From: Escherichia coli
GTDB taxonomy: Bacteria > Pseudomonadota > Gammaproteobacteria > Enterobacterales > Enterobacteriaceae
Length of the DNA stretch: 64,000 nt
Direction: 5' to 3' (one strand)
Assembly (NCBI RefSeq): GCF_003334305.1
Contig: NZ_QOWS01000025.1
The position numbers were made by a program. Of the stretch, positions 45,101 to 48,100 are shown in pieces. Each line of letters starts with the position of its first letter. Within the stretch, counting starts at the first letter, position 1.

Positions 45101-48100
45101 AACTTTGTTTCCCGCAGCATTCTGCGGAAGAACGCGAGAAGATGATTGCCGAAAACTTTCGTTCACTCGGCATGGCGCTGGTAGAAACCGGCATGGCATG
45201 GTTCTGGCCCGACAGTCGCGTACGTAAATGGTTTGATGTTGAAGGGTTGGATAACCTTAAACGCGCACAAATGCAAAATCGCGGCGTAATGGTTGTCGGC
45301 GTCCATTTTATGTCGCTGGAACTGGGCGGCCGCGTGATGGGACTGTGCCAACCAATGATGGCTACCTATCGTCCACATAATAATCAGCTGATGGAATGGG
45401 TGCAGACCCGTGGGCGCATGCGCTCTAACAAAGCGATGCTCGGCAGAAATAATCTGCGCGGCATTGTCGGTGCACTGAAGAAAGGTGAAGCGGTATGGTT
45501 TGCTCCCGATCAGGATTATGGTCGTAAAGGCAGCTCCTTCGCGCCGTTCTTTGCGGTGGAAAATGTCGCCACAACCAATGGCACCTATGTTCTCTCCCGT
45601 CTCTCTGGCGCAGCCATGTTGACCGTAACGATGGTAAGAAAAGCGGATTACAGCGGATATCGTTTGTTCATCACCCCAGAGATGGAAGGCTACCCGACAG
45701 ATGAAAATCAAGCCGCTGCCTATATGAACAAGATTATCGAGAAAGAGATCATGCGCGCACCGGAGCAGTACCTCTGGATCCACCGTCGCTTTAAAACGCG
45801 CCCGGTGGGAGAATCGTCGTTGTACATTTAACAAACTGCTCTTACTCTTTCCCTCCTCAAATCGGCCATAATAACCTCATGGTTTTTATGGCTTTTTTCT
45901 TAAGGTTTTTTCCTTCGCTGAATATCTAATTATTACCGTCAGAAATTAAACTGTCGCCGATATGAGACACTTGTAAGTTACTAAAAGTAAATAAGAAAAT
46001 GCCTCTTGTCTCGTTTCAGTTTTAGGCGTACATTAGCGCCGTCTCGAGCAGTTTAGCTCAGAATTCTGGGGTGATGCCCACGGTAAAATACAGGGCTTTT
46101 AAGGTCGCTTTGCCCGGTGTCAACTCACTGTATCAGGTGTAATGAAGTCATTCAGGCGTAACAGTAATTACGCGGAGAGATGTAAAGTGAAATATTTCTT
46201 TATGGGCATTTCTTTTATGGTCATCGTTTGGGCCGGTACTTTTGCCCTGATGATCTAAAAGCAAACTGTGCAATGAAAAACAGGAGCCATCAGGCTCCTG
46301 TTTGCATTTCTGACGACGGTGTTTATTCCGCGTTTTCGTGAATATGTTTGCTGCTGGCGGGTAGTAAACCGTCGGCACGGAACATCGCTTTAATCCCTCT
46401 GATGGCCTGACGAATACGGTCGCGGTTTTCAATCAGTGCAAAGCGAACATGCGTATCACCATAGTCGCCAAAGCCAATCCCCGGCGAGACACAAACCTTC
46501 GCTTCGTTAAGGAGCTTCTTGGCAAATTCCAGCGATCCCATGGCCGCATATGGTTCCGGGATTTTCGCCCAGACATACATCGAAGCCTTCGGCATTTCAA
46601 CCATCCAGCCCGCTTCATGCAGCCCTTTAACCAATACATCACGGCGGCGTTTGTACTGTTCGGCAATGTCGCGCACGCACTGTTGATCGCCCTCCAGCGC
46701 CGCAATCGCCGCCACCTGCAACGGCGTAAAGGTGCCGTAATCGTGATAGCTTTTAATACGAGCCAGGGCGCTGACCAGCGTTTTGTTGCCAACCATAAAG
46801 CCGATACGCCAGCCCGCCATGTTGTAGCTTTTCGACAGCGTAAAGAACTCGACTGCCACATCGCGTGCACCCGGTACCTGCATGATTGACGGCGCTTTCC
46901 AGCCATCGTAGACGATATCGGCATAGGCCAGGTCGTGGACCACCAGCACATCGTAGCGTTTCGCCAGCGCCACAACCTTTTCGAAGAACTCCAGCTCCAC
47001 GCATTGCGCGGTTGGATTCGACGGGAAGCCGAGGATCATCATCTTCGGTTTCGGATAACTTTCACGAATGGCGCGCTCCAGTTCGTTGAAGAAATCGACA
47101 CCTTCCACCAGCGGCACTGAGCGTACCTGCGCCCCGGCAATCACCGCGCCATAAATATGGATCGGGTAACTTGGATTCGGCACCAGCACCGTGTCACCAT
47201 GATCCAGCGTCGCCAGCATCAGATGCGCCAGGCCCTCTTTCGAACCAATAGTGACGATGGCTTCTGATTCCGGGTCGATTTCAACGTCGTAGCGATCCTG
47301 ATACCAGCGGGAAATGGCGCGACGTAACCGCGGAATGCCGCGTGAAGTGGAGTAACCATGCGTGTCCGGGCGCTGGGCCACAGTACATAATTTTTCGACG
47401 ATATGCGGCGGAGTCGCACCGTCCGGGTTACCCATGCTGAAATCGATAATATCTTCGCCGCGCCGACGCGCAGCCATTTTCAGTTCAGCGGTGATGTTAA
47501 AAACGTAGGGCGGGAGACGATCAATGCGCGTAAAGCGACGTTCAGGGCGAGTGTCAGCCATAATTTCCTCAGATTAACGTTAGCGCCCGGACCGTCCGAG
47601 CGACGCTGCCACAATGGTGGCTGTTTTGAAAATAGCCTGATTAATTTCTGTCTGTCCAGCGTTTTAGAACATTTTTATCAATGGCTTTAAATGAGGAACT
47701 CCACTTCAAAAACAGGAAATTTTTCTACGCTAACAAGAAAATTACCACCAATTTTATTAACATTATAATTTCAATAAATTTACCAGCCAGAAGTGCATTA
47801 TCAAGAGATACATTGCTAATACACCATTTATCTTTCAATCCCCTTTTAAATTTATGGTTTTTCCTCAAAAACGGCCTGCTGGTCATCAGCCTTCAGGTTA
47901 CCTATCATAGAGGTTTAATCCTTATTCAGAGTCACCCGTGCACGAAATATTCAACATGCTGCTGGCGGTCTTCGATCGGGCAGCGTTAATGCTTATCTGC
48001 CTGTTCTTTCTCATCCGTATCCGCCTGTTTCGCGAACTGTTGCACAAGTCGGCGCACTCCCCAAAAGAATTGCTCGCCGTTACCGCCATTTTCTCGCTGT

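Follow-up and report, generated by a model that had tools for sequence, protein, structure and literature searches.

Single-helix proteins such as KdpF, AcrZ, MgrB and CydX bind larger membrane proteins (review PMC12648545). The product of the ypdK gene in the window examined here (i.e., the whole 64,000-nt stretch of Escherichia coli DNA that was analysed) is like KdpF (29 aa), CydX (37 aa), AcrZ (49 aa) and MgrB (47 aa) in being very short, in being essentially one predicted hydrophobic helix, and in being conserved among enterobacteria. Nevertheless, YpdK shows no detectable sequence relationship to these four proteins, is shorter than each of them, and would have almost no residues outside the membrane. 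Moreover, ypdK is monocistronic, with a promoter-like block and a terminator of its own, whereas kdpF and cydX sit in the operon of their partner. The type I toxins IbsC (19 aa), ShoB (26 aa) and TisB (29 aa) in turn share with YpdK its size, its hydrophobicity and signs of restrained translation, but YpdK occurs in a single copy at a syntenic locus and is subject to strong purifying selection throughout the order. Type I toxins, by contrast, usually evolve fast, have a patchy distribution and occur in several copies.

The ypdK ORF can be read directly from the window as a GTG (46187–46189) followed by 22 sense codons and a TAA (46256–46258), and translates to VKYFFMGISFMVIVWAGTFALMI* (i.e., (M)KYFFMGISFMVIVWAGTFALMI when written with the initiator Met). 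The earlier note had given this ORF its name from the sequence alone, and the name is borne out by RefSeq, in which strains 504239, RiboJ-M2 and H15 carry a ypdK CDS (WP_010723117.1, with an identical peptide sequence) that occupies precisely this stretch, as well as by the NCBIfam equivalog NF033437 (YpdK), which matches at 57.5 bits (curated cut-off of 30 bits; E = 9.4e-16) with residues 1–23 aligned on profile positions 1–23 of 23. No gene-level difference separates the window ORF from this family or from K-12 ypdK, and its locus, 72 nt on the plus strand with lpxP and alaC as neighbours, is that of the annotated E. coli gene. Of 5426 complete E. coli genomes, 5423 matched the 499-nt stretch around ypdK at 95–100% identity, with a median of one copy per genome; in each of 20 rows drawn from the 5424 matching records, the feature beneath the match was "ypdK: membrane protein YpdK".

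ypdK is already known, having entered the E. coli annotation with the small-protein survey of 2008, in which small membrane proteins were reportedly validated by Hemm and colleagues through chromosomal SPA tagging. According to a later tiling-array paper (PMC3009722), ypdK is one of 18 small membrane proteins from Hemm et al. 2008, and the supplement of that paper gives its coordinates as 2494943–2495014 (+), i.e., 72 nt, in agreement with the length and strand of the window ORF. Ribosome profiling and epitope tagging, the checks named in the earlier note, have also already been applied to E. coli small proteins (10.1101/511675). As a discovery ypdK carries little weight, as a curated model already names the family across enteric bacteria; its value is rather one of calibration, in that a true 23-codon gene was recovered from raw sequence alone. 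The coordinates of the gene and of the surrounding features are compiled in Table 1.

Table 1. Features at the ypdK locus and elsewhere in the window (positions are those of the 64,000-nt window; a dot marks a feature assigned to neither strand).
Feature	Position	Strand	Details
Candidate ypdK promoter	46006..46040	+	TTGTCT 46006–46011, 17-nt spacer, TACATT 46029–46034, GC-rich AGCGCC 46035–46040
Conserved palindrome CAGAATTCTG	46059..46068	.	Early leader; sequence conservation
Leader hairpin	46156..46173	+	GCGTAA (46156–46161), 6-nt loop, TTACGC (46168–46173); abuts the Shine-Dalgarno sequence
Shine-Dalgarno sequence GGAGAGA	46174..46180	+	GGAG core 46174–46177, 9 nt before GTG
ypdK CDS	46187..46258	+	GTG start, 23 codons, TAA stop; RefSeq, NCBIfam, orthologues
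Bidirectional intrinsic terminator	46278..46303	.	ypdK (+) / alaC (–); 11-bp stem AAACAGGAGCC / GGCTCCTGTTT, 4-nt loop
ypeD	61954..62043	–	RefSeq, 29 aa, overlaps start of mntH

Conservation was assessed across 80 loci from Enterobacterales (one genome per species), which were anchored on alaC and were therefore recovered regardless of whether the small ORF had been kept. By local alignment, 75 of them were seen to contain a YpdK-like ORF, which nearly always lay immediately past the end of alaC and in opposite orientation (i.e., tail-to-tail); one of the other five loci was truncated and four were without a YpdK ORF. Only two of the 75 alignment-detected orthologues, both from Kluyvera, failed the search motif (W15 replaced by F). 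Among the 73 motif-fitting loci all three stop codons occurred and the length of YpdK was either 23 or 24 residues. The divergent YpdK proteins of Pantoea, Erwinia, Serratia, Buttiauxella and Kluyvera scored 44–56 bits on NF033437. This breadth of the family is not new, since entries from Escherichia/Salmonella, Enterobacter, Pantoea and Serratia are already called "membrane protein YpdK" at NCBI and in UniRef.

The substitutions in these loci follow a coding pattern. Entropy at codon positions 1, 2 and 3 was 0.59, 0.18 and 1.13, respectively, and pN/pS amounted to 0.27 in the ypdK frame vs. 1.14 and 2.21 in the other two frames. Residues G7, S9, G17 and T18 were invariant with all four synonymous codons in use for each (although the invariance of motif residues is in part by construction, because the search regular expression required several of them), both codons were in use for Y3 (likewise invariant) as well as for F19, and Lys2 was replaced by Arg only. 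ypdK is under purifying selection on its amino acids across Enterobacterales, and this in the proposed frame only.

These patterns also bear on the possibility that the ORF arose by chance in an intergenic region. The systematic scan for intergenic ORFs and Shine-Dalgarno (SD) motifs that had been proposed along with the ORF was carried out on the ca. 8 kb of intergenic DNA in the window, as delimited by the RefSeq annotation transferred from strain H15 (15 mismatches over 64,000 positions; the window strain itself is non-K-12). It yielded 211 start-to-stop ORFs of 15–59 codons lying wholly within intergenic DNA, 15 of which, including ypdK, were preceded by an SD-like 4–6-mer located 4–12 nt upstream of the start. 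Since such SD-preceded short ORFs are this common, an ORF with an SD sequence does not by itself rise beyond chance. ypdK was the most hydrophobic of the 15 (mean Kyte-Doolittle score of 1.73), but it is the order-wide conservation combined with the coding substitution pattern that separates it from its ca. 15 look-alikes and places it beyond chance, so that a chance origin is refuted and retains a vanishingly small probability. In turn, we are highly confident that ORF 46187–46258 is ypdK and a true protein-coding gene. As a side observation on the reference genomes, the K-12-like genome NZ_CP174268 was not colinear with the window before position 28236.

With regard to the start of translation, the GTG and the 23-codon length read by the earlier note were found as such in the window, and GTG was the start in all 73 motif-fitting loci with a search pattern that equally permitted ATG, TTG and CTG. 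The purine-rich ggagaga upstream was present as well, and in essentially all of the 73 loci a core of the GGAG or GGA type preceded the GTG by a similar distance. In a 40-sequence Enterobacteriaceae alignment both CGGAG and GTGAAATA were invariant, the GTG and the first eight coding nucleotides being kept. Moreover, many species have an in-frame stop just upstream of the GTG, leaving a stop-to-stop segment of only 24 codons, which excludes a longer conserved product. Judged by these alignments, the conserved translation start of ypdK is the GTG at 46187. A start at Met6 was considered and rejected, as it would lose both Lys2 and Tyr3 in spite of the constraint on these two residues.

It could still be argued that the main product in E. 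coli is a 38-residue isoform, N-terminally extended from an ATG at 46142 (i.e., MKSFRRNSNYAERCK followed by VKYFF...). The window and the E. coli loci L001 and L002 all contain this in-frame ATG, which is preceded by AGGTG and overlaps as TAATG with the TAA of an upstream ORF of 22–23 codons (46071/46074–46142), which could permit coupled initiation. However, the AGGTG lies merely 2 nt from the ATG, and among the loci examined the extension occurs in E. coli sequences only, while many other species have an in-frame stop no more than one or two codons ahead of the GTG. Moreover, the upstream residues vary even among E. coli strains (NSNY vs. SSKY), whereas conservation sits on the SD sequence, its spacing and GTGAAATA, and the gene is given as 72 nt by RefSeq and, in the supplementary coordinates cited above, by Hemm et al. 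We therefore regard the extended isoform as very unlikely to be the main product, and retain the GTG at 46187 as the start of YpdK.

Immediately upstream of the SD sequence, the ypdK leader contains a hairpin (Table 1) that is supported by covariation. More specifically, in a MAFFT alignment of 40 Enterobacteriaceae 88% of the cells were paired and four of the six pairs showed compensatory changes, a score reached by none of 500 shuffles and lying above all slid controls. RNAalifold, unprompted, recovered four of the hairpin pairs, three of them with compensatory changes. The E. coli leader folds at –10 kcal/mol (z = –2.6), and in its minimum-energy fold an outer helix pairs UUC (46151–46153) with the GAG of the SD sequence. 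As a conserved element this outer helix (TCATT/GATGA) was too weak and was rejected, given that 62% of its cells were paired and covariation was nearly absent. Erwiniaceae and Serratia have a different leader, in which a stem pairs with the SD sequence itself.

Further upstream, the spacer between lpxP and ypdK contains a block, ca. 150 nt upstream of ypdK, whose conservation far exceeds that of ordinary intergenic DNA. Within it, TTAGGCGTACATTAGCGCCGTCT (46022–46044) was invariant in eight genera/species ranging from Escherichia to Enterobacter, and 64 of the 73 loci, including those of Pantoea and Serratia, carry the core GTAnATTAGCGCC ahead of ypdK; in Enterobacteriaceae this core is preceded by an A-rich stretch and CTCTTGTC. 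A published tiling-array analysis revealed a plus-strand transcript with its 5′ end at K-12 position 2494795 (corresponding to window position 46039) that runs into and covers ypdK (PMC3009722). The candidate promoter in this block matches the consensus hexamers at 8 of 12 positions, which is below the threshold of the promoter consensus scan, and transcription is predicted to start near G46041, with a leader of ca. 146 nt. A CTATACT/CTATAAT block located ca. 50 nt upstream of the GTG is an alternative candidate for the ypdK promoter, but the E. coli version of this block is degenerate (CACTGTATC), and the 5′ end of the published transcript lies ca. 100 nt further upstream.

The early part of the leader contains the palindrome CAGAATTCTG, which occurs as CTCAGAATTCTGAG in most Enterobacteriaceae and as CTCAGAATTCTGGG in the window. 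Since it is kept in sequence without covariation, the palindrome suggests a putative protein-binding DNA site rather than an RNA stem. Two other elements of this region were considered and discarded. A supposedly conserved upstream ORF starting from the GAGGTGATG motif ranged from 11 to 84 codons with varying frame and end point, yielded no conserved peptide, and was without its ATG in Enterobacter. Likewise, for a 5′-terminal stem-loop at the predicted transcript start RNAalifold returned 0 consensus pairs on a MAFFT alignment, and alignment-free folding gave a mean z of –0.57, with 26% of the sequences below –1.

The GC-rich discriminator layout of the candidate promoter, as in rrnB P1, recalls stable-RNA promoters under stringent or growth-rate control. 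One could accordingly picture an order-wide conserved ypdK promoter, possibly of the stringent/growth-rate type, with CAGAATTCTG as a possible operator and with the hairpin and the never-ATG GTG start throttling translation, so that YpdK would be a tightly dosed, growth-rate-linked part of a conserved membrane machine; as a whole, however, we consider this scenario rather unlikely. The SD-adjacent hairpin, the promoter-like block and the palindrome add a little to the picture of this gene, and no description of them was found in the literature searched. The hairpin and the promoter-like block, together with the never-varying GTG, are handles on when YpdK is made, and the residual interest of the gene lies in the fact that YpdK is among the most strongly conserved E. 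coli microproteins without known function.

At its other end, ypdK is followed by a strong stem (–24.2 kcal/mol with z = –3.6 on the plus strand, and –22.1 kcal/mol with z = –3.1 on the minus strand), which is GC-rich and starts 20 nt past the ypdK stop codon. Its location between the ypdK stop and the stop of the convergent alaC (annotated as alanine transaminase, and thus an enzyme and not a membrane protein) indicates a terminator common to both genes. With this terminator on one side and a promoter-like block of its own on the other, ypdK is bounded at both ends. The consensus terminator scan of the window did not list this stem, for which hand counts of its tails suggest a possible reason. 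In most of the 73 loci ypdK and alaC lie tail-to-tail at a distance of 40–100 nt, whereas the gene on the upstream side of ypdK is not constant and is lpxP in only ca. 20 of them.

This tight linkage with alaC and the shared terminator, both kept order-wide next to a variable upstream neighbour, would be compatible with a regulatory or non-coding role of the locus, i.e., interference or antisense read-through on the convergent alaC, or a leader peptide, in which the peptide sequence as such would be irrelevant. Such a role is nevertheless at odds with the strong selection on amino acids reflected in the pN/pS value above, and with invariant residues that use all of their synonymous codons. Moreover, the next gene after ypdK is convergent, which is not the arrangement of a leader peptide or attenuator, and there is no same-strand gene downstream for leader-peptide control because the strong terminator directly follows ypdK. 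A regulatory role independent of the peptide thus appears highly improbable, even more so than the extended isoform discussed above.

A further alternative is that YpdK is a type I-toxin-like peptide in the manner of IbsC, ShoB or TisB, which would damage or depolarise the membrane and for which the weak start and structured leader would provide silencing. YpdK is indeed very short and very hydrophobic, its GTG start and SD-adjacent hairpin could limit translation, and its transcript was upregulated ca. twofold after UV in one tiling-array study (PMC3009722). However, no CTG-N10-CAG LexA-type box was seen by eye in the upstream sequence, and neither an antisense RNA gene nor an Rfam family was found over 44000–48500, where the Rfam search gave nothing near the gathering threshold and, at E ≤ 1, only a far sub-threshold plastid match. 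Also the single copy per genome and the fixed syntenic position across the whole order (75 of 80 loci), next to the strong conservation of the amino acids, depart from what is typical of type I toxin-antitoxin loci, making it very improbable that YpdK is such a toxin.

We instead favour a role of the KdpF/CydX/AcrZ/MgrB kind. In line with the single hydrophobic helix read in the earlier note, which suits the amino-acid composition, YpdK is inferred to form one transmembrane helix, which would insert singly in the inner membrane with Lys2 on the cytoplasmic side in keeping with the positive-inside rule. There, YpdK may bind a larger membrane protein inside the bilayer and act through this binding, a proposal that draws on the analogy with the four proteins above and that we put forward tentatively, at somewhat less than an even chance. 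Conservation in YpdK is organised in two blocks at the helix ends around a variable hydrophobic core (residues 10–14), and the putative contacts might be made via these end blocks, i.e., K2-Y3..M6-G7.S9 and W15.G17-T18-F19.L21-M22. An arrangement of the conserved residues on one face of the helix was tested and rejected (conservation moment of 0.13 at 100 degrees, permutation p = 0.41), leaving the simplest picture of one binding face unsupported. A structure search returned no solved structure containing the YpdK peptide, and no membrane-protein gene shares an operon with ypdK, in contrast to the arrangement of cydX or kdpF, so that synteny gives no partner. The expression of YpdK is probably kept low and controlled, for which the weak GTG start, the hairpin abutting the SD sequence and the gene's own conserved promoter would be the likely means.

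Finally, the expectation in the earlier note that other intergenic regions of this DNA could hide more genes of less than 60 aa held in part. The SD-based intergenic scan yielded no convincing candidate other than ypdK, but RefSeq does annotate a second small gene in the window, i.e., ypeD (Table 1), which would escape such a scan because it is without an obvious SD sequence.

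Upstream of ypdK, comparison of the alaC-anchored loci across Enterobacterales (L002–L081) revealed a promoter-like block, positioned at about –165 relative to the gene and composed, in this order, of an A-rich stretch, CTCTTGTC, 17 nt, TACATT, and AGCGCC. Its core (GTAnATTAGCGCC) was present in 64 of the 73 loci fitting the YpdK motif, and the published transcript 5′ end (~46039) falls together with the block. On its 3′ side, the block is accompanied by a conserved palindrome (CAGAATTCTG, 46059–46068) and an SD-like sequence, GAGGTGATG. The coordinates of these and further features in the window are compiled below.

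Features in and around the ypdK region and elsewhere in the window
Feature	Position	Strand	Source or remark
Sucrose-utilisation cluster (MFS transporter, kinase, cscA, LacI-family regulator)	within 22665–28453		Adjoins tRNA-Arg gene (22590–22664)
22-codon hydrophobic ORF (MSTIIRQLLLFFIVLPCWVIGR)	28064–28132	–	Intergenic ORF scan
Inverted repeat TGTCG-N8-CGACA	45950–45973	+	8-species alignment
Promoter-like block	46006–46080	+	Upstream of ypdK; conserved order-wide (comparison across loci)
22–23-codon ORF (MPTVKYRAFKVALPGVNSLYQV)	46071–46142	+	E. coli only
38-aa in-frame extension of ypdK, from ATG 46142	46142–46258	+	E. coli only
Small hairpin abutting the ypdK SD	46156–46173	+	Compensatory changes
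ypeD (“protein YpeD”, 29 aa)	61954–62043	–	Annotated; second microprotein gene in the window

An inverted repeat, TGTCG-N8-CGACA, of which the E. coli version is imperfect (TGTCGCCGATATGAGACA), was found in a conserved stretch that precedes the candidate start of ypdK by ~70–90 nt. This repeat could be a regulator site.

Closer to the gene, four of the six pairs of the small hairpin abutting the ypdK SD displayed compensatory changes across Enterobacteriaceae. In Erwiniaceae and Serratia, the SD itself is paired by a different stem. No Rfam family was found over the hairpin. Two E. coli ORFs also start 5′ of ypdK and are joined through a TAATG sequence, in which the TAA of the 22–23-codon ORF overlaps the ATG of the 38-aa in-frame ypdK extension; neither is conserved in other genera.

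The earlier note had further proposed that other small genes could be present below the 60-aa ORF cut-off, and this is supported by the annotated ypeD gene, which is not preceded by an obvious SD and shares the first 20 nt of mntH. Besides ypdK, the intergenic scan yielded a single strongly hydrophobic match, i.e., a candidate ORF with a TTG start, a GAGG 5 nt upstream, and a mean hydropathy of 1.58, located at the boundary of the sucrose cluster and a dsdX remnant. This ORF may have arisen by chance.

The source of the window is not K-12, and only 15 positions in 64 kb differ from strain H15. Whereas K-12 carries the CPS-53 prophage, dsdC, and an intact dsdX at the position of the sucrose cluster, dsdX in the window is reduced to a 3′ remnant (28235–28453).

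Some loci and strains deviated from the general pattern. In Kluyvera (L019 and L020), Trp15 of YpdK, which is invariant elsewhere, is replaced by Phe. The alaC neighbourhood lacked ypdK in four loci (L067, L077, L079, and L080), i.e., in Erwinia endophytica, Symbiopectobacterium, Lonsdalea, and a record titled Pseudomonas resinovorans. In the last-named record, alaC shares 91% identity with that of E. coli; the title of this record may reflect mislabelling or contamination. Finally, in E. coli NCTC9040 (NZ_LR134247.1), the match to the ypdK region was interrupted just ahead of the terminator shared with alaC but after the ypdK stop codon (query position 439; window ~46270), and resumed at a second place in the record. 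This alignment suggests an insertion at that point in this strain.
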